Source: Azolla caroliniana
Taxonomy: Eukaryota > Plantae > Polypodiophyta
Direction: 5' to 3'
NCBI GenBank assembly: GCA_043228905.1
Contig: JBHGNT010000016.1
Coordinates: forward strand, 10,478,001-10,542,000
DNA: 64,000 nucleotides
Shown: one piece after another, positions 25,638-60,525 of the stretch
How the letters are laid out: each line of letters opens with the position of its first letter
Numbering within the stretch: the first letter of the stretch is position 1
Notes under the pieces: model-generated
What the model saw: the letters and a program-made list of their open reading frames with translations, nothing else
Databases searched by the model: none
Told to the model about the DNA's origin: nothing
Position numbers and translations under genes: made by a program

Positions 25638-27537
25638 ATGATCCGTGGAGCTCATGCTCAACGTAGTTTCTAATTTCTTAAAGACTTGTGTCCAGAAGTC
25701 ACTAGTAAACTTTGGATCTCAATCACTCACGATATCCATCGGGAACCTATAAAAACGAAATAACTCGTCAATGAATTGGTAAGCCAATTCAGGAGTTGTT
25801 ATTGTGGTTTTAGTAGCAATAAATCTGACCATTTTAGTTAGTCTATCAACCACAACCCAGATGGCATCATGGCCTTTTTGGGTGCGAGGAAGGCTAACAA
25901 TAAAATCCATGGATATACTTTCCCACTTACTATTGGGAATGTCCAAGGGATGTAAAAGTCCTGCAGCCTTAAGTCGCTCGGCTTTGTTAACCTGGCATTG
26001 GTGACATTTAGTCACATATTTATGTATGTTAGTACACATCTTAGGCCAATCGAATTGAGTGGAGATGAGAACGAGTGTACGATGTATTCCAGGGTGCCTT
26101 GCTAAGGGTGCATAATGGCAGTAAAAAAGAATTCTCATTTTTTACCTCACGCAAATCTGGAACACAAACCTTCCCGTTACGGTAGATCAGCCCATCGTGC
26201 CTTACGACCTTTCAGGTCTTGTTGGTCACAAAAATATTTCAAGGACTCGTGGTCCATAGTTACCACAAAATGATCCGTGGAGCTCATGCTCAACGTAGTT
26301 TCTAATTTCTTAAAGACTTGTGTCCAGAAGTCACTAGTAAACTTTGGATCTCAATCACTCACGATATCCATCGGGAACCTATAAAAACGAAATAACTCGT
26401 CAATGAATTGGTAAGCCAATTCAGGAGTTGTTATTGTGGTTTTAGTAGCAATAAATCTGACCATTTTAGTTAGTCTATCAACCACAACCCAGATGGCATC
26501 ATGGCCTTTTTGGGTGCGAGGAAGGCTAACAATAAAATCCATGGATATACTTTCCCACTTACTATTGGGAATGTCCAAGGGATGTAAAAGTCCTGCAGCC
26601 TTAAGTCGCTCGGCTTTGTTAACCTGGCATTGGTGACATTTAGTCACATATTTATGTATGTTAGTACACATCTTAGGCCAATCGAATTGAGTGGAGATGA
26701 GAACGAGTGTACGATGTATTCCAGGGTGCCTTGCTAAGGGTGCATAATGGCAGTAAAAAAGAATTCTCATTTTTTACCTCACGCAAATCTGGAACACAAA
26801 CCTTCCCGTTACGGTAGATCAGCCCATCGTGCCTTACGACCTTTCAGGTCTTGTTGGTCACAAAAATATTTCAAGGACTCGTGGTCCATAGTTACCACAA
26901 AATGATCCGTGGAGCTCATGCTCAACGTAGTTTCTAATTTCTTAAAGACTTGTGTCCAGAAGTCACTAGTAAACTTTGGATCTCAATCACTCACGATATC
27001 CATCGGGAACCTATAAAAACGAAATAACTCGTCAATGAATTGGTAAGCCAATTCAGGAGTTGTTATTGTGGTTTTAGTAGCAATAAATCTGACCATTTTA
27101 GTTAGTCTATCAACCACAACCCAGATGGCATCATGGCCTTTTTGGGTGCGAGGAAGGCTAACAATAAAATCCATGGATATACTTTCCCACTTACTATTGG
27201 GAATGTCCAAGGGATGTAAAAGTCCTGCAGCCTTAAGTCGCTCGGCTTTGTTAACCTGGCATTGGTGACATTTAGTCACATATTTATGTATGTTAGTACA
27301 CATCTTAGGCCAATCGAATTGAGTGGAGATGAGAACGAGTGTACGATGTATTCCAGGGTGCCTTGCTAAGGGTGCATAATGGCAGTAAAAAAGAATTCTC
27401 ATTTTTTACCTCACGCAAATCTGGAACACAAACCTTCCCGTTACGGTAGATCAGCCCATCGTGCCTTACGACCTTTCAGGTCTTGTTGGTCACAAAAATA
27501 TTTCAAGGACTCGTGGTCCATAGTTACCACAAAATGA
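25638..27537. repeat. 632-bp tandem triplication of an integrase segment
   Basis: TGATCCGTGGAGCTC at 25639, 26271 and 26903. Three identical 139-aa ORFs. ATGAT microhomology at the junctions. Confidence 0.97.
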
Positions 27538-28380
27538 TTTGTATAAAGATAATGGCGCCATGTTTTGAGCGCATGTATAACTACAAATAATTCCTTTTCT
27601 TAAACTGTATACGGAGATTGAGCAAAATTAGGTTTCTTACTCTCGAATGCTATTGGTTTACCATCTTGATATAAGATAGCACATACAACATAATCGCTTG
27701 CATTAGTTTCAACCTCAAAAGGTTTTGAAGGATCAGGTAAAAGAAGCGAAGGAGCCTTGCACACCAGGTCCTTGAGTTCCTTAAAGGCGACGTCTAATGT
27801 AGCATGCCACACAATAGGTTTTGTAGACATACGCATTTGACCTTTTAGAAGATCAGTAAATGACGTCGTCAATTCAAAGTAATTATGAAGGGATTTTCGC
27901 AAAAACCCGACAAAACCAAGGAATGATCGAACTTTGGACCACTCTTGCATCGAGAAAATCCCTTGCATTCCTTGATTTTCTCGATGCAAGAACGATCAAT
28001 TTCAACTCCTCGTTCAGTTATGAGATGTCCAAGATAAGTAATAGATTTCTTGAAGAACTCTCATTTTGAGATCTTTGCGTAGAATTGCTTGTTGCGCAAT
28101 GTTTGTAAAACAACGCGGACATGTTTAGCATGTTCTTCTCATGTACGAGTATAAACTAAAATATTATCTAAGAAAATAACGACAAATTTTATCAAATTGA
28201 TCTTGGAAAATGTCATTCATTTATTGTTGAAAACTGGCCGGAGCATTGGTCAAACCAAATGGCATAACCAAACACTGATAACGGCCGTAACGTTGTCGCG
28301 TGGCACGTGACACACTTGCCAAACATCGGGATGTGCGCATCACAAGCGCGGACAAGCACCGGGCCTCTATCCGCTAGTGG

Positions 28381-29097: not shown

Positions 29098-29475
29098 AAT
29101 AGATGTTGCGTGGCATGTGACACACATGCCAAACGTCAGGATGTGCGCGTCACAAGCGCGGACAAACACCGGGCCTCTATCCGCTAGTGGTTATGGAGGA
29201 TTGACGATGGGATTTCCGCGCCTACGGGTTGGTCGAACGGGACCACCAAGGTCTTTGACCGGGGAGAACGAATTGGGTGAGTTGTGCCTATAAGGTTTAT
29301 CTTCGAGTCGTTCTTTGTTGTCGAAGACACCCGAACCCGACTCAACGGTGCGCTGGATTGACGTGTAGGCAACTGAAGTAATGCACTAATGTGGTTGAGA
29401 GTGTGTGAGAGAGAGAAACGAAAATTGAGGAAGTGTTTTAGATAGATAAATAGACGACGGATTGAAATTCCAATT

Positions 29476-29533
29476 CTAGGTTTGAACCCTTGACTTTAAT
29501 TTAGAGAAACAAGACACATCACCAATAGGATAA
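29476..29533 (-). promoter_or_regulatory. tRNA-like Pol III A/B-box module in LTR, sense to the element
   Basis: Reverse complement TATCCTATTGG...GGGTTCAAACCT with tRNA-like spacing. Conserved at 59284-59337. Confidence 0.5.
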
Positions 29534-29811
29534 TTAGGTTTTCTTTTTAAAATGTCTTTATTTAATCCATAGCTTGCTTGATACATAGCTTGTTCGATTT
29601 ATCAATCGATTCCCACTTATATAGATGCCCCCATGCATATGTGCATGTGAGGGTGTAAGACATGTATACAATGCATGAAATGCATGTGATGCATGATTGC
29701 CATTTGGCGCTCATGCATCACATGTGGTGCATGATGACCATGTACCTCATCCAAGCTCTCATGTATGAGCATTCATATATGAAAAACATAATGATGATCT
29801 AAAGAAATAAC

Positions 29812-29872
29812 TTAGCCTAGTGGTAAGTCAGGTTTGTCCTATCTTGGAGGTGCAAGGTTCAATACTTGCACC
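29812..29872 (+). promoter_or_regulatory. tRNA-like Pol III A/B-box module in LTR U3, antisense to the element
   Basis: A box TAGCCTAGTGG, B box GGTTCAATAC in the stem GGTGCAAG/CTTGCACC, starts 43 nt apart. Conserved at 59568-59620. Confidence 0.6.
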
Positions 29873-31039
29873 CTTTCGTATGCTTGAAAATGCAAATAGG
29901 GTTTTGGTGTTCTCATAACATTTATATTTACAACATGCTAACGTATGAGAGTAACGATCACCCCTTTCATTTGTGTTCATATTACACCTTCTTGATTCCA
30001 CGCGATTTTCACACCATTGCCGAAAATCTGCACGACAACGCGTACAGAATGTCGTTTTAGGAACATCGTCCTCGCTTATACGAATTTGATAGTAGCCCAT
30101 ACGAAGATCAAGTTTCCTAAAAAACCAAGCTCCCTAGAGACTGTCAATTAGATTGTTGGCCCGGGGCATGGATATGAATTCTTTATCGTCACTTTATTCA
30201 GGCGTCGGTAATTAATACACATACGCCATGTGCCCTCTTTCTTTTTTACCAAGAGAATAGCTCCACCACATGGAAATTTACTATGACGTATATAAGCCAT
30301 TCGTAAATAGTCCTTTAGCTACTTAGATACCTCATCCTCTTCGGATCGACTTAAGAGATAAGGAGGTATACTTATTGGTGCAATGCCAGGTACAATATGT
30401 ATACGATGTTCTATATTATTTTTAGGAGGTAACTCATGTGGTAGTTCACTCAGAAAAACATCACGAAAATCATTTAGGATTTTATCGAGTTGTTGTTATT
30501 CAAAATATGATAATGGAACCGAGACATTATCGATATAGTAAACGTGAATGTCCGGATCAAGTACACAATAAAATAAAGTAGAACAAGAAAACTCGGATAT
30601 TGATGGCAAGGAAACAATCGAAAGATAGTGTTTTTTAACACATTGAATAAAATGACTACAATTGTTCAGTACAACAGTAATTGCATGATGAACCCAATGA
30701 ATTGATAAAAAAGAGTTTTCATTAAAAAACCATGGATAACCCAAGATTACATCACTGGTACAAAGATTCATTACATGGAAGTCTACTTCCTCTATATAAG
30801 TATCAATAGAAATTCCTAATGAATGAATCGCCCCGTTGATGTATTGTACTATTCCATCAGCCAAGTGCACCCTATAGGTGTGATCACTTACAGTGGGTTG
30901 AATTCCCCATATCTGAACCAAACGATCATTGACAAAATTGTGTGAGCTTCCTGAATCAAATAAAAATTCACATCCATTGATATACTCGTTTGTAGGTGGC
31001 GGCCTTACTCCCTAGTTCTCGGCCAACATATGCAATCTT

Positions 31040-47317: not shown

Positions 47318-49263
47318 ATACCCTTGGTTTTTTAATAAAAACCCTTCTTTGTTCATTGATTGGGTTAATCACTCAATTACATTTGAACTTAATAATTGTA
47401 ACCATTTTATTCAATGTTCCAAACTCCATTCTCGTTCACTTGTGTCTTCTAAATCTTTACGTGAGTATTCTAGTTCATTAATTTATTTGTGTGAAATTGA
47501 TCCTGCGCTTCAATTTTATTATTTTAATATTGACGTCACACAATTACCACATTATGAACAACGATTAGTCAGTCTATTTTAGACGATTTTCAGGACGATT
47601 TTCCTCACGAATTGCCGCTTACTTTACCACCAAAACGTAATGTGGACCATCAAATTGAACTCATCCCCAGTGCTGCTCCTATGAGCATTCCACCTTATCG
47701 ACTCAGTCGATTAGAAGAGTATGAGATCACTAAACAACTTAAGGAATACTTCGTATGGGCCACATTAGGTATAGTAAATCACCTTGGGGTGCGCCAGTTC
47801 TATTAGTTAAGAAGAAGGAAGGTTCATGGTGAATGTGCATCAATTATCGCCGTTTGAATAAAATGACAATTAAAAATGCATATATGTTACCTCGTGCCGA
47901 TCATTTGATTCATCATTTGCATGGGGCCCGATATTTTACAAAAATTGACTTCTGAAAAGGTTATCCATCAGCTTCGCATTGCGAGGATGGTATTCCTAAA
48001 ACCACTTTTCGTACACGCTATGACTAATGTTGTAGCCACATTCCAACAAGCGATGAATGATATTTTCCGAGATCAACTCGGTGATTTTGTTGTCGTCTTC
48101 TTGGATGATATTTTGATATATAGTTGTACCTTGCAAGGTCATGTTCAACATGTTCGATTTGTTTTGTAAAATTTGTGTGACAACTCTTTCCATGCAAAAC
48201 ATTCAAAATGTGATTTTTTCCAAAAATCTATTGTGTACCTAGGTCATTTAATTACGGAAAATGGCGTTGAAATTGAACCTTATCGTATTCAAAACGTTAA
48301 AATTTGGCCCATTCCTCATAATATTCATGAATTGCGATCATTCTTAGGGTTTGTTGGATTTTTACGAAAATCAATTCGTAACTATTCCACATTGACTGCA
48401 CCATTAACTGACCTTTTAAAAGGTCATCCACGTAAGTTTGTTAAACCGATTGCATGGAATGAACAACTTGACAAATCATTTGAGACATTCAAAGAGCATG
48501 TGTGTCACACTCTCACTTTTCTATTACCAGACCTTTCTAAGCCTTTCTCAATCAAAATCGATGCTAGTGATTATGCTATTGGTGCTGTTCTTTATCAAGG
48601 CAGTCACCCTATTGCTTTGTGTGAAAGTGTTTTCAGAATTCAAGGTATTGAAGTCTACAAAAATATAAGGTATGGAGCATTCACACCCGAAGGCCAAGAA
48701 CACGAGCTAAGGTTTCAAGTATAAGTCAAACTAAAAACAAGAAAGATGGAGAAAAGTAAAAGAAGGAAAAAGCAGACCACCAAAACGTAGTCAGAAACAA
48801 ATGCTCATAACTCTCTCGTTTGACACCCAAATATCACGTGTAAATATGGGTTAGAAAGCTTATGACGAGAGCTATCCGTAGCTTTTTAAAACTCTAAATT
48901 TGGAGCATGGATGAGGGAGATATGACGATTAGAAGATCGTTGTGTCATAGCTAAGAATAGGAGATGGAAAAGCTCTAAAAAAAGCGTGGAAAAGAAAGCA
49001 AGCGAAACTTATCTACTAGAGGAGAACTTCATATAAAGCAAGAAGAGTGAGGTGGTGAGAAGAGAGCCTTTTTCTTGTGGGGTTTTTCTTGCCTATTCAT
49101 GTAGTGCGTTTTTCTAGTTATCAATTGATCCTTGTAGGCTTGAGTTTATGTATCTTCTTTCTCTTGTTTCTATGATCATCACTCCTTATTAATATATCTT
49201 TGTAGATTTGGATTTCTATATCTTCCTTCTCTCTCTTTTCTATCATCTTCTCTCTTTTCATTT

Positions 49264-49281
49264 TGGCGCTCCAGGGAGGGT
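49264..49281 (+). promoter_or_regulatory. PBS for a non-Met tRNA, possibly tRNA-Asn
   Basis: TGGCGCTCCAGGGAGGGT implies a tRNA ending CCCTCCCTGGAGCG-CCA (G discriminator). The isoacceptor identity is inferred. Confidence 0.6.
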
Positions 49282-50083
49282 CGATCCTTTCCATATAACG
49301 GGAGGAACGGTTGTCCACTAATTGATGGTTGGATCTACCGATTCATCATCAAACTAATGGCACGATATGGAGTTCGCGATGCGACAGATCTACGAAGAGA
49401 ACTTTTCCAATTGCGTATGGTTTCACCAATGTGCTACCTCGAGTATGAGAAGACGTTTTTGGATATATGGTCCACTTGGATTGGACTTGTTGGAGGCATT
49501 GAAGATGTATACTTCAAGATGGAAAGATTCAAAGCAGGGCTAGATCCATATTTTCAATATGAAGTGCATATGAAGTACCCAAGGTCTTTCCATGATTTGC
49601 TTCGAGTATGTCAAAGTTATGATCAACAATTGAAGAAGTTGTTATTCGGTGAAGCATATGGAGTATCGGCGTCATATACCATAAATCCAAGCTATAATAA
49701 TTGTGGATCGGTCATGAGCCAACAACCAACATACTTGCAATGTCCGATTCAACAGGTTCCCTCATATCATTATTCTAATTTTTGGAGTTATAATGATGTC
49801 TATGAAGGTGATTCCAGAGACTATGAAGAAGAGGTGATGAATGTGGAGTTCCCCCATCTAGTTCATGAGGGCAACCATGATATAAAGAATGATGATGTGA
49901 AAGACGAATCTAATGAGATTGTTATGAGAAGCGATGTTATGGATGGTGATGCCAATGTACATCATGTTGAGAGCATTATTGATACAACAAGCGATATGGT
50001 GGTTGATGATGAATATGTGCAAGATGAAATGGAAGATATGACAAAAGAAGTTGTTGATGGTGAAGTACCCACAACGAAGTTGC

Positions 50084-50539
50084 TGTCATAACTAGACTCG
50101 AACCCATAACCTTTTGTTACACGGGTCGAGACTTTACCATTAGGTTATGAATTGTAATTTGAAGGATATTATTTTCATTTAGGTTTTATTGGGAAATTGA
50201 TGTATATTCCAGATTTCTCTGGAACATTCTAGAAACTTCAGGAGTATTCCTGAAGACACTATAAAAGGAGGCGCAAGGCATTAGTTCGAACCAAATCGGT
50301 TCAACGCCAGTCTTAAGCCTTCTAACTACTGTTGTATATCTTCCTTCATATAATACATATATCTTTCGCATCATCATTCTCTCTCTCTCTCTCTCTCTCT
50401 CACTCACTCATTCCTTCTCTCAAAAGTTCGACACCTCTCATAGTACTAATCCTTCTCTGTCTTAGTACTATTCCCCAACAATAGTACTAATCCTTCTTTT
50501 AGTACTAATTCCTTCTCTGCCTTAATAGAGTTCCTGACA
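50084..50539 (+). repeat. 5' LTR of intact chromovirus
   Basis: TGTCA...TGACA termini, TATAAAA at ~50260, CT tract. Confidence 0.97.
50086..50150 (-). promoter_or_regulatory. tRNA-like A/B-box module at the LTR start, antisense (repeated at ~55388-55452)
   Basis: Reverse complement TCATAACCTAATGGTAAAG...ATGGGTTCGAGTCTAGTTATGA, with A and B starts 43 nt apart and a closing TCATAAC/GTTATGA stem. Confidence 0.6.
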
Positions 50540-50541
50540 GT

Positions 50542-50553
50542 TTGAACCGATTT
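50542..50553 (+). promoter_or_regulatory. Self-priming PBS
   Basis: TTGAACCGATTT is the exact reverse complement of AAATCGGTTCAA at 50293-50304, about 30 nt after the LTR TATA box. There is no TGG tRNA-type PBS. Confidence 0.85.
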
Positions 50554-50639
50554 TGGGTGCCTGTCTGGTCTTTTCTCTCCCTCTTCCTTCTGTCTCCCTC
50601 CTTTCCTACTAGTCTCTTATTTCCCTTTTCCTTCATCCC

Positions 50640-51809
50640 ATGGCCACCGTTAGCGCTGAAGAGTATCAATCCGTTTTCTCGGAATTTCAATGCTTGAAAG
50701 AGAAGTTTCATGCTTTGGAACAAGAAAATCAACGCTTGTTGGGGGATCTTCAGCAAATTTCCTTAGAAAAGCAGCAAACGCAACAACAGCATGGGGAACT
50801 TGCGTTACGCGTGCAACAACTCGAAGCAACCATCGTAGCAATGCAACAACAAGGGCACGGAGCACAAGGGATTCATAAAGAACCCAAGATTGGCCTTCCC
50901 ACGAAGTTCGATGGAACGCGATCGCAGTTTAGAGGGTTTCTTAACCAGGTACGGTTAGTTATTCAAATGCATCCGTCCCGATATCCCACCGATGCATCAC
51001 GAGTGGGTTTAGTAGGCACGTTGTTAAATGGCTCAGCATTAGCATGGTTCGCTCCGCTACTAGAAAAGGAATCTCCAGTACTAAATAATTTTGAAGAATT
51101 CATAAGTGAGTTTAAAGCATGTTTTGGAGATACTGACAGCATAAGGACTGCAATCAACAAAATCTGGCGATTACGCCAAGGTGACCGTCCAGCCTCCGCA
51201 TATGCTGCAGATTTCCGACTACTCGCCGCCGATATCCCCTGGGATGATCAAGCATTGATGGAGCAGTTCCGCTATGGTCTACGCAACGATGTCAAGGATT
51301 TACTCTTGACTTTCCCTGAAGAGCCAAAATCATTAACAGAAGCAATCAGTCGAGCGGTAAGATGTGACAACCGCCTCTTCGAGCGACGTTCGGAACGACA
51401 ATTTCAGATGCCGAGGGCAAGATCCGAGCCTACCTATGCCTCAGTGGTAGCAAAACCTTTTCAAAGGGAGTCACATAATGCGCCTCCAGTAAGTACTCCA
51501 ACTCCAATGGAAATTGACACTACACGTCGTCGTGGGCCGCTATCGGAGGAGGAAAAGCAACGACGCCGAACAAACCGATTATGCCTTTATTGCGGTGGAC
51601 CAGGGCATATCGCGATAAACTGTCCCCATAGACCAAGAAGGCAGGTAAACCAAGTCGTTGTTAGTTCTGACTATACTAAACCCGAGTCTATTTCAGTAGG
51701 AATCTCTGATAGTCCTCATAGTCATAATAGTCCTAATAGTACTAATAGTCCGAATCTCGCAAACAAATTTGATGTCCTTAGCCAATTAGAAGAAGAGTTA
51801 AACGACTAA
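50640..51809 (+). CDS. gag: Gag polyprotein (coiled coil, retrotransposon capsid, CCHC knuckle)
   Basis: 389-aa ORF with PKIGLPTKFDG, ALAWF, LRQG, CLYCGGPGHIAINC. Confidence 0.95.
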   Translation: MATVSAEEYQSVFSEFQCLKEKFHALEQENQRLLGDLQQISLEKQQTQQQHGELALRVQQLEATIVAMQQQGHGAQGIHKEPKIGLPTKFDGTRSQFRGFLNQVRLVIQMHPSRYPTDASRVGLVGTLLNGSALAWFAPLLEKESPVLNNFEEFISEFKACFGDTDSIRTAINKIWRLRQGDRPASAYAADFRLLAADIPWDDQALMEQFRYGLRNDVKDLLLTFPEEPKSLTEAISRAVRCDNRLFERRSERQFQMPRARSEPTYASVVAKPFQRESHNAPPVSTPTPMEIDTTRRRGPLSEEEKQRRRTNRLCLYCGGPGHIAINCPHRPRRQVNQVVVSSDYTKPESISVGISDSPHSHNSPNSTNSPNLANKFDVLSQLEEELND

Positions 51810-54800
51810 GTCCAGCCAAAATAGGAGCCGTTTGGTTGGACAGCCCTAGATCTGTGCAGCCCATTAGTGGTTCCATTCCCTCTAAGCAAGTTAGTGATGT
51901 GTTCGTAGCCCAAGTAGCAGTTAGTACTAAAAGTACCCCTCCAGTACATACCTTAGCCCTTCTAGATTCCGGAGCTAATTCTTGCTTCATGGATAGGAAT
52001 TTTTCCCGAGCTCATCAGATATCTCTCAGAAAGCTCCCATGTCCAGCCTCAATAGTAGTCATTGATGGTCGTCCCATTGCTTCTGGTAATATCATAGAAG
52101 AGTCGGAACCCGTTAATATTGTCCTAGATAACTTAACATGTGTAGTATCATTTAATATTATTAGTATTCCAGAACATCCCATAGTTTTAGGATTACCATG
52201 GTTCGAGTTACATAACCCAGACATAGATTGGAGGACAAGGGAAATCCGGTTGCGACAAACCCAAGGATCTACCCAGAAGGTTGCAACCATTTCGCTACAT
52301 CAGTTGCGTGAGGAAGGGCGCAAGGAGGAAATGTTTCTCTTCGCAATATCAGTACAACCCTCCAGCACCACCAAAGAGGAGTCCACCGTTCAACTTCCCG
52401 AGAAGTATCGTCAGTATGTTGATGTGTTCGATAAAGTACAAGCCAACACACTTCCTCATCATCGGCCGTACGATTGCGCCATCGACTTACAACCGGGAAA
52501 AGAGCCGCCATGGGGGCCGATCTACAATTTGTCACCAACCGAGCTAGAAGTCCTCCGAGCCTATATAGAGGAGAATTTGGAGAACGGTTTCATTCGGCAT
52601 TCGAAATCTCCAGCCGGTGCACCCATTTTCTTCGTCAAGAAAAAAGATGGCTCGCTTCGACTCGTTGTAGATTACCGTGGCTTGAATAAGGTCACAGTAA
52701 GAAATAGGTATGCTCTTCCCCTTATCTCAAGTCTTTTAGAACGGATCAACGGTGCCAGGTTCTTTACGAAGATCGACTTACGAGGAGCCTATAACCTCGT
52801 ACGGATCCGACCAGGAGATGAATGGAAGACCGCGTTTCGCACCAGATATGGGCACTTCGAGTATACGGTCATGCCGTTCGGACTCACTAATGCGCCGGCA
52901 GTCTTCCAGCACATGGCGAATGATATATTTCGAGATCTCTTGGATGATTTTTTGATCATCTATTTGGATGATCTACTGGTTTATTCAAAGACCCAAGAAG
53001 AACATGATTCTCATGTACTATTAGTACTAAAACGACTTCGAGAACATGGTCTGTATGCAAAGTTAGAGAAATGTAGTTTCGGGTGCAACCAAGTGGAATT
53101 TCTCGGCTATGTCATCTCCTCAGAAGGCATATCTATGGACCCAGCCAAGGTGAAAACGGTGATAGAATGGCACACTCCGCGTTCGGTGCGGGATGTGCAA
53201 TGCTTCCTAGGCTTTGCAAATTTTTACCGGAAGTTCATACAAAATTACTCAAAAATTGTGCTGCCTCTCACACAGCTCACCAGGAAGGGACAATCATTCA
53301 TTTGGTCTAAAGAGACGGACATGGCTTTCGAGAGTCTTAAGAAGGCGTTTACATCAGCTCCAATTTTAGGTCATGTGGATCCGGAAAAACCATTCATTAT
53401 CGAAGCTGACGCATCGGATTTCGCATTGGGGAGCATTCTGTCACAACAGGGTAACGACGAGAAGCTACATCCTGTGGCTTTCCACTCCCGTAAGTTTGAC
53501 GCCGCCGAAATCAACTACGAAATTCATGATAAAGAGCTATTAGCAATAGTTGATTCTTTTATGCAATGGAGGCATTTCCTGGAGGGATCTCCTCATCAGG
53601 TCACTGTATTCAGTGACCACAAGAACCTTGCCTACTTTCAAGATGCTCGTGTACTGAATCGACGTCAAGCTCGGTGGGCCCACTTCCTCACACGCTTCGA
53701 CTTCAAAATTACATATCGTCCGGGGAAGCACCAAGGGAAGGCAGATGCATTATCACGGCGTTCGTATCTAACACCACGTCCCGGTGAGCCAGCTTTCGAT
53801 AACCAGAAGCAAGTAATCTTGGGTCCAGCACGACTGCAAGCAGCACAGGTCTTTGACATGCCCGTGGATTCCGACATTACCAATACTATACGTGAGGACT
53901 TGAAGACTGACGCTTTCGCCCAAGCTATACTAGCACAAATTGACCCCTCTCGAGCGTCATGTTCACAATCACAATCACCAGGTACGGATTATCGGCAATT
54001 CAAATACTGTGATGGATTACTCTTCTTTAAAGAACTTTTGTATGTTCCTAATGGTTCTTGCCGCCTTCGAGTAGTACAAAATTGCCATGACACATATACA
54101 GCAGGACATTTTGGTAGTACTAAAACATTAGATTTAGTACAACGATCATTCTGGTGGCCCCGTATGCGACAATTTGTCGAAGATTTTGTTCGGACTTGCG
54201 ATACATGCTGCAGAGCGAAAATGCCAAGACATCATCCATATGGTTTATTAGAACCATTACCAATTCCAAGCAAGCCATGGCAATCCATTGCTCTTGACTT
54301 CATTACAGATCTTCCAGTCTCTAAGGGATTCAGTGCGATTCTCACAGTGGTGGATCGATATACGAAGATGGCTCATTTCTTACCATGTACTAAAGAAATA
54401 TCTAGTGAAGACACCGCCGAAATTGTCATGCGGGAAGTATGTCGGCATCATGGACTCCCTGATAATATCATCAACGATCGTGGACCCCAGTTTGTGTCAA
54501 AATTCTGGAAGCACCTTTTTAAAATGCTGAAGGTCACTTGTAACCTCTCCTCCGGCTACCACCCACAAACCGACGGTCAAGCCGAACGAACAAATCAAAC
54601 ACTGGAGCAGTATCTGCGGTGCTTTCTCAACTATCATCAGAATGACTGGGCAGATATTCTTCAGTTCGCCGAATTTGCCTATAATAACACTATCCACGCA
54701 TCGACTAAAGTCACGCCATTCTACGCTTATACGGGATATCATCCCTGGTGGTGTGTCCTTGAAACCCCAGAAGTGTCCACAAATCCTTGCGCGGAGGATC

Positions 54801-55393
54801 GTTTGGAGCGGTTACGCAAGATACAAGCGGATTTATCTACTCAACTCCAGCAAGCTCAACAATCACACAAGGACTACGCAGATCGTCATCGACTTCCATC
54901 CAGTTTTAACATTGGAGATTGGGTGTGGCTGCTACGACGACACATCAAGACTACTCGCCCATGTGAGAAGTTGGATTATCGGCGATTAGGTCCTTTCCGT
55001 ATTATCGGGAAGATTAATGATGTCGCTTTTCGTCTCGAGCTACCTCCGCAACTTCAGATACATCCGGTGTTTCATAGTTCTCTCCTCGAACCCTATCACG
55101 AGAGCACTATCCCAGGACGTACTATACAACCACCACCTCCTATCGAGCTCGAAGATGGACCTGAGTATGAGGTCGCTGCCATCCTCGATTCCAAGATTGT
55201 TCGCAACAAGCTCTACTATCTAGTCGATTGGCTAGGATATAGTCCCAGCGAGCGTACTTGGGAACCGATCGAGAATGTGACCAATGCTCGTGCTCTTCTA
55301 GAAGACTTCCATCGACGATATCTCGAGAAACCGGGTCCTCAATCCAAAACGACTCGTGGAACTCGTCGTTTTAAAGGGGGGATAGTGTCATAA
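51782..55393 (+). CDS. pol: Pol polyprotein (protease-RT-RNase H-integrase-chromodomain), likely expressed by -1 frameshift
   Basis: Frame is open from 51782. LLDSGA, YLDD, EADASDF, HHCC, DDE core, GPF, chromodomain EYEVAAILDS...YLVDWLGY...TWEP. Confidence 0.96.
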   Translation, partial: PIRRRVKRLSPAKIGAVWLDSPRSVQPISGSIPSKQVSDVFVAQVAVSTKSTPPVHTLALLDSGANSCFMDRNFSRAHQISLRKLPCPASIVVIDGRPIASGNIIEESEPVNIVLDNLTCVVSFNIISIPEHPIVLGLPWFELHNPDIDWRTREIRLRQTQGSTQKVATISLHQLREEGRKEEMFLFAISVQPSSTTKEESTVQLPEKYRQYVDVFDKVQANTLPHHRPYDCAIDLQPGKEPPWGPIYNLSPTELEVLRAYIEENLENGFIRHSKSPAGAPIFFVKKKDGSLRLVVDYRGLNKVTVRNRYALPLISSLLERINGARFFTKIDLRGAYNLVRIRPGDEWKTAFRTRYGHFEYTVMPFGLTNAPAVFQHMANDIFRDLLDDFLIIYLDDLLVYSKTQEEHDSHVLLVLKRLREHGLYAKLEKCSFGCNQVEFLGYVISSEGISMDPAKVKTVIEWHTPRSVRDVQCFLGFANFYRKFIQNYSKIVLPLTQLTRKGQSFIWSKETDMAFESLKKAFTSAPILGHVDPEKPFIIEADASDFALGSILSQQGNDEKLHPVAFHSRKFDAAEINYEIHDKELLAIVDSFMQWRHFLEGSPHQVTVFSDHKNLAYFQDARVLNRRQARWAHFLTRFDFKITYRPGKHQGKADALSRRSYLTPRPGEPAFDNQKQVILGPARLQAAQVFDMPVDSDITNTIREDLKTDAFAQAILAQIDPSRASCSQSQSPGTDYRQFKYCDGLLFFKELLYVPNGSCRLRVVQNCHDTYTAGHFGSTKTLDLVQRSFWWPRMRQFVEDFVRTCDTCCRAKMPRHHPYGLLEPLPIPSKPWQSIALDFITDLPVSKGFSAILTVVDRYTKMAHFLPCTKEISSEDTAEIVMREVCRHHGLPDNIINDRGPQFVSKFWKHLFKMLKVTCNLSSGYHPQTDGQAERTNQTLEQYLRCFLNYHQNDWADILQFAEFAYNNTIHASTKVTPFYAYTGYHPWWCVLETPEVSTNPCAEDRLERLRKIQADLSTQLQQAQQSHKDYADRHRLPSSFNIGDWVWLLRRHIKTTRPCEKLDYRRLGPFRIIGKINDVAFRLELPPQLQIHPVFHSSLLEPYHESTIPGRTIQPPPPIELEDGPEYEVAAILDSKIVRNKLYYLVDWLGYSPSERTWEPIENVTNARALLEDFHRRYLEKPGPQSKTTRGTRRFKGGIVS
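51797..51850 (+). promoter_or_regulatory. -1 ribosomal frameshift signal
   Basis: G TTA AAC heptamer in the gag frame, 6-nt spacer, 11-bp stem GTCCAGCCAAA/TTTGGTTGGAC. Loop TAGG can pair with downstream CCTA. Confidence 0.8.
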
Positions 55394-55843
55394 CTAGACT
55401 CGAACCCATAACCTTTTGTTACACGGGTCGAGACTTTACCATTAGGTTATGAATTGTAATTTGAAGGATATTATTTTCATTTAGGTTTTATTGGGAAATT
55501 GATGTATATTCCAGATTTCTCTGGAACATTCTAGAAACTTCAGGAGTATTCCTGAAGACACTATAAAAGGAGGCGCAAGGCATTAGTTCGAACCAAATCG
55601 GTTCAACGCCAGTCTTAAGCCTTCTAACTACTGTTGTATATCTTCCTTCATATAATACATATATCTTTCGCATCATCATTCTCTCTCTCTCTCTCTCTCT
55701 CTCTCACTCACTCATTCCTTCTCTCAAAAGTTCGACACCTCTCATAGTACTAATCCTTCTCTGTCTTAGTACTATTCCCCAACAATAGTACTAATCCTTC
55801 TTTTAGTACTAATTCCTTCTCTGCCTTAATAGAGTTCCTGACA
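55386..55843 (+). repeat. 3' LTR of intact chromovirus
   Basis: Direct repeat of 50084-50539. Confidence 0.97.
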
Positions 55844-57053
55844 GTTGCAAGATGAAGAAGGTAACCTAGAAGTGATAGCTGGAGATTGGCTTTTGGAGAT
55901 CAATGCGTGTAAGGAAGCATTGGTAAGTGCCAAGATGCAGTGTATGAAGGTGTTTGTGCAAGATTTGTGTTTTGGATTTGCATTGAGTAGCAACAAAGTT
56001 ATGTGGGCATCAACTCTTCAACAACAATTTGACCAAGAGCCAAGAGATTTACTTGTAATGCATGATTGGAGTATCATTAACTTATCACCATCAAAGGATC
56101 CACCACAACTAATCAAATGTATAAAGGAGAAGGAATCATCTATCGACATTGGCAAGCAAGAAGAGGAAAGCATAACAATTGATGAATATTCATTGGATAG
56201 GGAAAACAAATCATTCCACATGGTGTCTAAGGAGGAAGAAGAAGTCATTGAAGAGAAAAGTATTATCACCCTAAAGGGGAAAAAGAAGATGATTTCAAAC
56301 AATGTCCAAGGAGAAGAGGATCTAAGGTTTATTTCTATCTTTTTTAAGTTTACAAAGTTATTCATAAATGACTATTCACAGATAAGAGTAGAAGGCATCA
56401 AGCACCACATCAAGTTGGAGAATTTGAAGTTTGTCTCACTTATTGTGGTTGTTCCAAAGGAGAAAGACGTCAACTTCCAACCCTTGAATGATTCAACCAG
56501 ACGAGATTTATTTTTGCTTCCTTTTCAAGATGAGATTCTAGATGAAATGGTCATACATACAAAACAAGGTAATGTGGAGAATGTGGTGTGCCAAGAAGAA
56601 AGTCATGTTGATGAAGCAAAGATCGACGTAATTCAAAATATGACAATTCTGACAAGTCTCGAAGCTTTGAAGGTATTTGTACAAAAGGTTCGCTCGCTCG
56701 AAAGACTTATTCATATGTTAACATGCTTACTTCTATCAAGAGTTATGTATCACATAGACCTACTTCTGTTTGGAAAGTTGATGAAGATATACTAATTGTT
56801 GTAACCTCTTTCTTTGTGTTGACAAGGAGAAAGATGGTGATGGCAATTGTCAATGTGTATGTGTGTGTGTTTAGAAGTGTGAGGTTTTTCCTATCGACTA
56901 GCGGGGGTTTTACTCACATAGTTTGTTTCTTTTCTATTTATTTTCTCCTTCTTTGTCTATAGCCATGAATAAGGCGAAGGAGAACCTTTAGTTTTATTAG
57001 TAGCTTAGGGTTCACCATAAATGGTTCACCAAAAAGCAAGGGGGAGGGCTAAA

Positions 57054-57694
57054 TGTGAAAGTGTTTTCAGAATTCAAGGTATTGAAGTCTACAAAAATAT
57101 AAGGTATGGAGCATTCACACCCGAAGGCCAAGAACACGAGCTAAGGTTTCAAGTATAAGTCAAACTAAAAACAAGAAAGATGGAGAAAAGTAAAAGAAGG
57201 AAAAAGCAGACCACCAAAACGCAGTCAGAAACAAATGCTCGTAACTCTCTCGTTTGACACCCAAATATCACGTGTAAATATGGGTTAGAAAGCTTATGAC
57301 GAGAGCTATCCGTAGCTTTTTAAAACTCTAAATTTGGAGCATGGATGAGGGAGATATGACGATTAGAAGATCGTTGTGTCATAGCTAAGAATAGGAGATG
57401 GAAAAGCTCTAAAAAAAGCGTGGAAAAGAAAGCAAGCGAAACTTATCTACTAGAGGAGAACTTCATATAAAGCAAGAAGAGTGAGGTGGTGAGAAGAGAG
57501 CCTTTTTCTTGTGGGGTTTTTCTTGCCTATTCATGTAGTGCGTTTTTCTAGTGATCAATTGATCCTTGTAGGCTTGAGTTTATGTATCTTCTTTCTCTTG
57601 TTTCTATGATCATCACTCCTTATTAATATATCTTTGTAGATTTGGATTTCTATATCTTCCTTCTCTCTCTTTTCTATCATCTTCTCTCTTTTCA
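57054..57694 (+). repeat. 3' LTR of the non-autonomous element
   Basis: Direct repeat of 48620-49260. Confidence 0.95.
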
Positions 57695-58549: not shown

Positions 58550-60525
58550 ACACCAATTGGGCCAATAGGGCGAAGAAGGCATTAAGGAGGGGACCGACTC
58601 GGGAGTTGGGGAAAATGTGTGGTGACCCGAAGAAATACACAATGAAGAGCGGAACAAGATGCGTGCAATATGTCTGTGTAAGGGCCAAGTAACGAGCACA
58701 AAGGGGATCGATTGCGATGAGGAGTCAAAAGGTGTTCGACGTGCAGCGGTGATGGATCGAGGGAGCGGTTGGGTCGAAAAAGGTAGGGACAAGGTGCGAT
58801 ACCCGACATGCGGTCGGGAAGAACGGGAACCCGTGCCGCACATGGATATGAAGAGGCTAGAGAGCGGTACATTGGTACCACGGGAGAGGGTGCGGATCGA
58901 GCCACCCTCTCGACATGCGGAGAAAGAACGACCAGGGACAAGGTCGAGGCCGGAGATGCGATGATCACGTTCGGGAAGGGACGAACATGTCCAAAATGTC
59001 GATTCGGGATAGGCAAGCAAGGTCGAAGCTTGTGTGGAAGAGATAGCCATGGGCCGCGACGTCGAGCGAAAGTAGCTATGGACAGAGGCTGGGTAGGTGA
59101 TCCTACGACGATCTTCACACCGATCCAGAGATTCCAATGTCGAGGAAATCCTCGTGTGTTCGTGAAATGAAGCGGGACCACCGAGGTCCTGGACCGGAAG
59201 GATTCGATGTTTTTAGCAGCGTAACCGAGAAAGTATTGAAGATAGATAGATGGATGAAGAGAGAGAGAGAGAGATTGAGATAGAGATTGAACCCGTGACT
59301 TTAGTTTTATGAGACAAGATACATCACCATTAGGATAACTCCGATCTTTGATTAAAAGTTTCTTTTTTACTTACATCACTTGCCTCCCCTACACAAGCCC
59401 AACTATAGACTTTATAGGTCTGTCCATGCAAAAACCATGGGCTAAAACCACGAGCTGAAACCATGGGCTAAAACCATGGTTTTGTGCCCACTTTTTCTAT
59501 ATGTTTGCTTCCTACAAAATACTGAATATTAAAAGAAAATATACAAATTCTAAAGCACTTAGTAGTGTCTTTAGTGGTAAGTTAATTTGTCTCTTATCAT
59601 GGAGGTGCAAGGTTCAAGTCTTTTTTTTACCCCTATGTATGCACTTAAGTGTTACTAGGCTTTAGTCTTATTTTTATATTACAATTGAGCGCACATCACA
59701 CGTGCTCATGTTTAACTTTACATCTAGCTTTTCTTTTACGATTCTCATTTCGGTCCTATTTACAACATGCTAGCGTATGCGTGTGACCTTCACCCCTTTC
59801 ACATGTGGACATTGCACCTTCTCAATTTCGTTCGTTGCACACAATTTTCACATCGTTGCTGAAAATCTTCATGACACCGGTAGTCAGCCCGAGAGCCGGC
59901 GTGAGACCTAGAGAGATGGACGGTGGCGGCAGGTGAATGAAATCTTAAGATGTGATTTTACAGAGATCTACTCACTAATCCGAAGACTCCGCTGATCCGG
60001 CCCGAGAGCCGACGTGAGAACGACACAGATGTACGGTGGTGGTAGGTGAACGGGATCCTACTATGTGGTGAAATGTGAATGAGCAATCCTACGATGATCC
60101 TCAGACCGATCCCGAGACTCCGACGGTCCGGCCTAAGAGCCGACGTGAGACCAGGAGAGATGGATGGTGGCGGCAGGTGAACGGGATCCGACAAAGCAAG
60201 GACTGCAAGAGCAGAAAGAGGTATAAGGCCGGTGATGTGGCCATGAACCGGAAATGGACCCGATCGGCATGGTCAGAAGAACGAAGGATGGACGCGCAAG
60301 GTGCACGGGTCGTAGGCCTCAAAAGACAGAAGGCTCGAGAGGGATCCTCCACACCGGTTCTAGAGACCTCAGCATTTCGACTATCATGGCAACGTAAGAC
60401 TGAAGAAATGGAAGGTGGCGGTGATGGGACGAAGGCAGTAGCAACGGAGGCACCGAGCAACCAAGGTATCGCGAGGACAACGGAGGCCAAACGGGCCGAA
60501 ACGGACAAGGGTGATCCCTATACGG
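58550..60525 (+). mobile_element. Purine-rich internal region of a Trp-family element with degenerate ~110-125-bp tandem units, split by a solo LTR
   Basis: GTTGEGADRATLSTCGE is homologous to ~38025-38090. CCCGAGAGCC..CGTGAGA..GGTGGCGGCAGGTGAA recurs at ~59888, 60001 and 60132. Confidence 0.6.
59138..59876 (-). mobile_element. Solo LTR of the Trp-PBS gypsy family
   Basis: TGTCGAGG...CATGACA termini, homologous in blocks to 29104-30037. Flanks CCAA/CCGG fit a deaminated 4-bp TSD. Confidence 0.8.

Follow-up and report, generated by a model that had tools for sequence, protein, structure and literature searches.

An outward-facing tRNA-derived module with Pol III-type promoter boxes at the LTR edge of Tcn1-like chromoviruses: a candidate chromatin barrier

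Results

A young, self-primed chromovirus at the locus

The window, by which we mean the whole 64,000-nucleotide stretch of DNA that was analysed, contains a 5,760-bp Ty3/gypsy element (50084-55843) with TG...CA ends, a 5-bp target-site duplication (TSD) and open gag and pol frames (Table 1). The domains follow the gypsy order and close with a C-terminal chromodomain bearing an aromatic cage, as in the Tcn1 clade. Between the two LTRs there are no substitutions and one 2-nt microsatellite indel, and the LTRs of the family are 93-100% identical among the 40 that were scored, from which we infer that the element is very young. Judged by the element evidence, the host would be a non-seed plant.

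The element has a self-priming layout: 12 nt (50542-50553), positioned 2 nt past the 5' LTR, pair with 50293-50304, which lies 33 nt behind the start of the TATA box. This falls within the definition of Tcn1-clade self-priming (at least 10 complementary nt, starting 0-5 nt after the 5' LTR). The self-complementarity of the primer-binding site (PBS) rules out primer debris as the origin of the tRNA-like module at the LTR start, and the 12-nt pairing supports the sequence-only reading, which had made the same argument. The self-primer sits in a near-palindrome (50277-50305), perfect in the sister family L064, so that a competing hairpin may arise at the 5' end of the RNA.

Two further observations concern the window itself. 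In the protease region (51822-52019), five polyA reads from two runs skip 196 nt with non-canonical ends, probably reflecting a deleted copy. At 25638-27538, three identical 632-bp tandem copies lie within a decayed chromovirus integrase and represent either a recent duplication or an assembly artefact.

Table 1. Features of the window element and of related modules in the window (window positions; strand given where it applies).
Feature	Position	Strand	Basis or remark
Outward-facing tRNA-derived module, U3 start of 5' LTR	50084..50150	-	boxes, score, stem
A-box-like segment TAACCTAATGG	50137..50147	-	TGGT core common to the 14 families aligned
B box GGTTCGAGTC	50095..50104	-	sequence
Second module copy, 3' LTR	55386..55452	-	faces polypurine tract and chromodomain frame; first run of four T 37 nt past LTR end
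5' LTR	50084..50539	+	456 bp, TG...CA
3' LTR	55386..55843	+	458 bp
TSD GTTGC	50079..50083; second copy 55844-55848	.	element nested within another LTR element, 48620-57694
TATA box, presumed Pol II promoter	50260..50266	+	LTR nt 177
Predicted self-primer near presumed RNA 5' end	50293..50304	+	sequence pairing with PBS
PBS, complementary to self-primer, not to a tRNA end	50542..50553	+	sequence
gag (Retrotrans_gag, zinc knuckle)	50613..51809	+	open frame
pol: protease, RT, RNase H, integrase, SH3, chromodomain (Y1129/W1150/Y1153)	51782..55393	+	open frame, 1203 aa
Polypurine tract (PPT)	55373..55385	+	sequence
tRNA-like module, outward, U3 of putative minus-strand LTR (~30041 to 29104), other gypsy lineage	29810..29875	+	LTR judged from TG start, TATA box and PBS
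Like module, related putative minus-strand LTR starting near 59877	59560..59625	+

Both LTRs begin with an antisense two-box module

In both window LTRs an A-like box, a B box and a 7-bp closing stem are present at the terminus, with the two boxes 43 nt apart, start to start on the minus strand; every letter that the sequence-only reading had given for this arrangement was recovered. In the 5' copy the stem joins 50144-50150 with 50086-50092 (p 0.004, 500 shuffles). A two-box weight matrix trained on tRNA genes called by ARAGORN in host loci gave the window module a score of 27.1, against a host tRNA median of 28.2, and none of 200 dinucleotide shuffles scored as high. The box gap is 38, host tRNA genes having 38-39, and the module accordingly has the sequence layout of a type 2 Pol III promoter, an A and a B box at tRNA spacing. 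Scores of 13 and above are counted as positive below, a cut set after inspection of the data, and single shuffles reached scores up to 21.

A true tRNA gene was rejected, in agreement with the earlier reading. ARAGORN made no call, even at a relaxed threshold at which 5 of 23 modules, the window module not among them, were called as tRNA, and there was no Rfam tRNA match at E<=10. Only two Watson-Crick pairs form in the T-stem, the closing stem is displaced by 2 nt from the acceptor register, and there is no cloverleaf with its stems in register. Candidate donors gave best local matches to Arg(TCT) and Ile(TAT), and with only 14 isoacceptor types compared, some of them organelle-like, none is named.

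Distribution across the Tcn1-like lineage

Genome-wide, a pattern of PPT and TGT followed by an antisense B box had 2,944 matches, compared with six for the reversed control (overlapping matches counted), and the sense-orientation pattern had 13, compared with 12 in its control. Because such a pattern itself selects for the box, sampling without the B-box pattern was also used. This box-independent sample drew on 70 of the 150 best chromodomain matches, on 400 kb of sequence next to the window and on 79 metagenome loci chosen for their integrase; the scored zone was the 400 nt past the chromodomain, and a score of at least 13 was taken as positive. Among 78 chromodomain-anchored Tcn1-like 3' ends from this genome, most of them copies of family E and not independent, 72 carried an antisense module and none a sense one. 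The module was also found in five of six plant-like metagenome relatives, always outward, and in none of 69 chromoviruses (37-47% identity) taken to be fungal-like, nor in any of three other chromovirus ends. Distant loci came from viral (one) and prokaryote (seven) collections, and neither the viral locus nor the five prokaryote loci that were scored had a module.

Counted by LTR type, 18 of 20 were positive, with scores of 13.6-27.6 and at most 1 of 200 shuffles as high; the proportion was 14 of 16 for types not chosen by the B-box pattern. Three pattern matches (L102, L116 and L119) had been dropped as non-LTR, with no pol upstream. Conservation of the module far beyond the family of the window element, on which the sequence-only reading depended, is borne out by these counts.

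The module-bearing families are diverged down to about 50% protein (integrase) identity. In an integrase tree of 50 rows, with no reference element and the root not fixed, the plant elements form one branch (22 rows, 100/99), and the module occurs on both of its main halves. Two rows of family H are nested inside this branch with a decayed remnant. This family (L193, L224 and L260), with decayed boxes and a TA run in the spacer, offers a natural loss-of-module control and is still present in two data sets despite the decay. Two non-coding self-primed LTR elements, L061 (4.8 kb) and L062 (2.7 kb), have no gag or pol match and otherwise unrelated LTRs, and keep the boxes. In the LTR of SM-Tcn1 from Selaginella a module was not seen by eye; the module may therefore go back to a single ancestral gain or may have passed between families within a single host lineage.

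Rearrangements at the module were observed in L024 (1437-1498, element orientation), L009 and L216, where it is duplicated (first 62 nt), absent from a tandem LTR (nt 1-71) or duplicated together with the PPT; this suggests template switching at the module border.

The promoter boxes are kept and the tRNA shape is not

The TGGT core of the A box is the same in all of 14 families, and the B-box core varies very little. Mean pairwise identity across ten families is 0.69 for the A core, 0.77 for the B box and 0.75 for the variable loop, the box values being inflated by anchoring, and only 0.29 for the anticodon region and 0.34 upstream. Most families have a box gap of 37-40 nt, and E and I have one of 45. 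In the Tcn1-like families the distance from the LTR terminus to the start of the B box is 17-64 nt, and in many families the last B-box position is T instead of C. The closing stem is significant only in A1 and D, and marginally in G, among 23 modules, and elsewhere is absent or found in other registers. This comparison rejects a conserved closing stem or cloverleaf; the tRNA mimicry that the sequence-only reading had proposed for U3 is not supported, and what is kept instead are the promoter boxes.

No run of four T occurs between the predicted start and the B box in any of the 14 families (3.4 expected, P 0.014), and family H has one; the terminator lies 1-114 nt past the LTR, or there is none within 300 nt. 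Among 200 listed genomic copies, the box-destroying change C56T was seen 16 times and the tolerated change G57A seven times, whereas among the 14 family representatives the counts are one and six (Fisher p 0.025, the families not being independent). Conservation confined to the boxes, taken with this reversal, argues for selection on a Pol III promoter rather than on tRNA shape.

Other LTR lineages and a SINE-like family

A general LTR strategy in this genome, as the earlier reading had suggested, is contradicted by the other lineages: no score was found anywhere in the LTR for 12 copia pairs or eight Arg-primed gypsy pairs, the three other chromovirus ends were likewise negative, and none of 29 non-self-primed LTR pairs scored in the first 150 nt. 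The narrower idea that two distant gypsy lineages converged on or exchanged such modules fared better. In a gypsy lineage with 4-bp TSDs, the module is antisense, hence outward, and lies about 105-165 nt into U3, though it was positive in only two of four LTR pairs. The family has the order PR-RT-RH-INT, no chromodomain match and an RT about 27% identical, and is a non-chromovirus. It has a 14-nt stretch around the A box in common with Tcn1 family B, which hints at exchange or a shared donor. The minus-strand LTR-like stretches at 29104-30041 and ~58900-59877 in the window, which probably represent the other lineage of the sequence-only reading, each contain two tRNA-like modules, of which the one in U3 faces outward and the one behind the TATA box faces inward; a Met-like anticodon loop is present in one module.

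A free-standing SINE-like family (L335-L364, e.g. L335:1501-1710) is about 205 bp long and consists of two tRNA-like heads arranged tail to tail with an A-rich end. It is young, with TSDs of 8-25 bp, inserts in GA microsatellites and numbers about 2,125 first-look candidates. Its first head matches the modules of families C, C2 and D with 63/76 to 69/79 identical positions (83-89%), and does not match the window module. This head is present in RNA reads; assuming standard stranded libraries, these favour its sense strand by about 3 to 1. A SINE-like family with the C/C2/D head is an indirect sign that this type of sequence works as a Pol III promoter. For family A no free SINE was found, all ten of its ten matches lying in LTR-type context.

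Several related arrangements were noted in passing. One SINE-like copy sits inside a copia LTR (L156:2120-2330), and more tRNA-like heads, outside the families studied, are found at L163:6480-6620 and L156:1600-1700. At L136:2340-2440 and in LTR clusters F10-F12 and F16 there are gypsy elements in which a tRNA-Arg copy replaces the PPT, one of them carrying a whole tRNA-Arg gene.

So the module appears to be a conserved Pol III-type promoter restricted to a lineage, and neither a tRNA mimic nor a genome-wide LTR strategy.

RNA, CpG and insertion-site data

PolyA RNA reads on the window element are sparse (56 and 43), and none starts or ends at the module, polyA libraries being uninformative for Pol III. 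The B-box CpG decays in inserted copies at the rate of a neighbouring CpG (12 versus 15 of 100, p 0.68; the control CpG of family E, which varies by subfamily, was left out), and most copies therefore do not seem to be shielded from CG methylation at the B box. Targeting to tRNA genes was rejected: the 1.5 kb around family copies contained no tRNA gene at any of 60 partly overlapping loci.

Discussion

A predicted Pol III complex at the LTR edge

The module is probably a selected Pol III-type promoter of some role. It cannot drive the genomic RNA, because it points off the element end and a distinct Pol II start is indicated by the TATA box and the self-primer. Terminator distance and fold vary, which also makes a conserved RNA product unlikely and leaves a DNA-bound complex as the candidate. 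Our preferred reading, held tentatively and at slightly less than even confidence, is that the module may serve as a TFIIIC/Pol III chromatin barrier that shields the Pol II promoter of the LTR. The outward tRNA-derived A and B boxes, in the outer 70-110 bases of each LTR, would likely bind TFIIIC and assemble Pol III. TFIIIC bound on LTR nt 10-65 is predicted to place TFIIIB on the AT-rich nt 68-130 (76% AT), 50-110 nt upstream of the TATA box, and the Pol III complex would stand between the host flank and the Pol II promoter. Such a complex would be a built-in barrier, allowing the Pol II promoter to stay open after an insertion into silent chromatin that the chromodomain has probably steered; short outward transcripts would stop at the first T run, and selection would work on a few master copies.

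In yeast, tDNA barriers that block heterochromatin require TFIIIC and Pol III, according to PMC2040200, and chromodomain integrases have been reported to target heterochromatin (PMC7466625). Barrier activity in yeast is described as orientation-independent (PMC2040200), whereas the orientation of the module is fixed, and this counts against a barrier. So does the existence, without the module, of family H, SM-Tcn1 (by eye) and the 69 fungal-like relatives. The CpG-decay proxy gives no indication of protection, and the RNA reads give no module signal. A broader picture is rather doubtful, namely that autonomous chromoviruses aiming at heterochromatin might carry a clade-wide outward Pol III barrier, that it was traded with other gypsy lineages, and that its run-off transcripts founded a new SINE family (LTR-to-SINE); the transfer may have run from LTR to SINE or from SINE to LTR.

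The boxes might instead form an active Pol III promoter with a meaningful product, the 3' LTR giving a short antisense RNA that covers U3, the PPT and part of the chromodomain frame and that tunes the element's own expression or feeds or decoys small-RNA silencing. The fixed antisense orientation, the lack of an internal run of four T in 14 of 14 families and the related SINE head in RNA, with its sense bias of roughly 3 to 1 under the same assumption about the libraries, would all suit such a product, but with terminators 1 to 114 nt or more past the LTR, no conserved fold and no such reads seen in the polyA-selected libraries, we regard it as unlikely. Distinctly unlikely, in our judgement, is a passenger origin, in which tRNA-SINE heads were repeatedly captured or swapped into LTR starts, or U3 ends recombined between families, and the boxes look conserved while conferring no benefit. 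Here the spacer has diverged to background while the boxes persist, and the mutation bias runs against C56T; in every family the module has the same end and strand, with no poly-A tail or TSD, and family A has no free SINE (10 of 10 matches in LTR-type context). These points stand against the SINE head common to C, C2 and D, the SINE copies that do insert in LTRs (L156) and the 14-nt stretch in common with the distant gypsy family. SM-Tcn1, near the window's branch by eye and yet lacking the module, also fits a passenger, as does the SINE insertion that Kojima proposed as the origin of Helenus (PMC10886601).

Two other possibilities concern the RNA or cDNA of the element. On free cDNA, TFIIIC bound beside the U3 end could help to retain the integration complex in the nucleus, to tether it or to choose its target site, in keeping with a B box that is always 17-64 nt from the integration terminus. 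Pol III factors serve targeting in other retrotransposons (Ty1 and Ty3). This is nonetheless improbable, given that no tRNA gene lies within 1.5 kb in the 60 partly overlapping loci, that the A box, open spacer and missing terminators exceed what tethering needs, and that the module of the other gypsy family is more than 100 nt from the LTR end. Alternatively, a tRNA mimic or hairpin could act in RNA or single-stranded cDNA at the PPT/U3 junction. Individual modules do look the part: shuffled versions of the window module fold less well than the module itself (z -2.9), family D combines a perfect 7-bp acceptor stem with an Rfam tRNA score of 25.4 bits, the cut-off being 29, and in family E an 8-bp stem around the T loop ends at the LTR terminus. 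The stems differ in register, however, and are absent from most of the 23 modules, and folding energy is no better than in shuffles for B, E, F, G and m3. The tRNA-like sequences of Helenus are likewise given no priming role by Kojima (PMC10886601). The stem comparison largely refutes a structural role of this kind, which we consider very improbable.

If the barrier reading is right, it bears on the open question of how elements that insert in silent chromatin stay active, and the captured Pol III promoter is a concrete candidate that can be mutated, since its two boxes make up about 20 bases. This plant genome is strewn with thousands of candidate TFIIIC sites, 2,270 LTRs matching the pattern of one subfamily alone, and an LTR lineage is linked to a SINE family. 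In plant genomes rich in repeats, such modules may also lead to tRNA genes being overcounted; more than 7,500 tRNA genes are listed for one fern in a review (PMC13578239).

Comparison with known systems

We found Pol III-type boxes at the LTR edge in print only for short parasitic elements. In the open-access literature no account of autonomous elements with such an outward module was found, only Helenus and Ajax being relevant, and subscription papers, Repbase notes or supplements may hold one. Helenus/TRIMp3 (Kojima 2024, PMC10886601) is the closest parallel: as here, both LTRs contain sequence derived from a tRNA in which the A and B boxes are kept and the tRNA structure is lost, with a proposed SINE origin and no priming role. 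Helenus elements are TRIMs of 311-1263 bp without coding sequence, and their transcription is ascribed to the tRNA-type promoter (PMC10886601), whereas the carriers described here are autonomous, 5.3-5.8 kb long and equipped with a separate TATA promoter. Three features keep the window element out of Helenus: it is a 5,760-bp element with open gag and pol rather than a short (about 1 kb or less) non-coding one; its PBS is self-complementary rather than tRNA-primed; and its promoter is antisense rather than placed to transcribe the element, the sense orientation in Helenus following from the model in PMC10886601, whose text gives no explicit orientation. The same paper argues that an autonomous partner has to rely on Pol II and that its LTRs are unlikely to have such sequence in common with Helenus, so that the present elements extend the tRNA-in-LTR design from short parasites to autonomous elements against an expectation stated in print (PMC10886601). 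It also mentions tRNA-like parts in "not a few" of the LTRs in Repbase, the non-TRIM ones not being analysed there. Cassandra, as described in PMC10886601, similarly keeps a Pol III promoter long-term in a plant LTR, but that promoter is 5S-derived, sense, and drives the RNA of a non-autonomous element.

The window element has self-priming, the aromatic-cage chromodomain, two overlapping ORFs and a 5-bp TSD in common with plant Tcn1-clade chromoviruses (Neumann 2019, PMC6317226; Novikova 2010, PMC2864245), and the self-priming layout was predicted for Tcn1 elements by Neumann et al. (PMC6317226). Judged by eye, a chromodomain stretch of SM-Tcn1 matches the window element at 36 of 50 residues, and the proteins and R region are alike too (PMC2864245, supplement S3). 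In the portions of these two papers available to us no tRNA-like LTR module is described, and the SM-Tcn1 LTR has tandem repeats at the place of the module. In the same supplement, bases past the 5' LTR of SM-Tcn1 pair by eye with a stretch near the LTR TATA region, as they do in the window element, although the authors found no priming signal.

Tail-less, lacking a TSD of its own and moving by the LTR route, the module differs from tRNA-derived SINEs (SINE2), with which it has in common a tRNA-origin head, kept boxes and decayed stems, and one such family here has the C/D module. With the yeast tDNA/TFIIIC barriers (PMC2040200), which it may resemble in its working, it would have in common an A/B-box element bordering silent chromatin and an active promoter; those barriers are host loci demonstrated by experiment (PMC2040200), whereas the module described here is mobile, occurs in plants and is known from its sequence.
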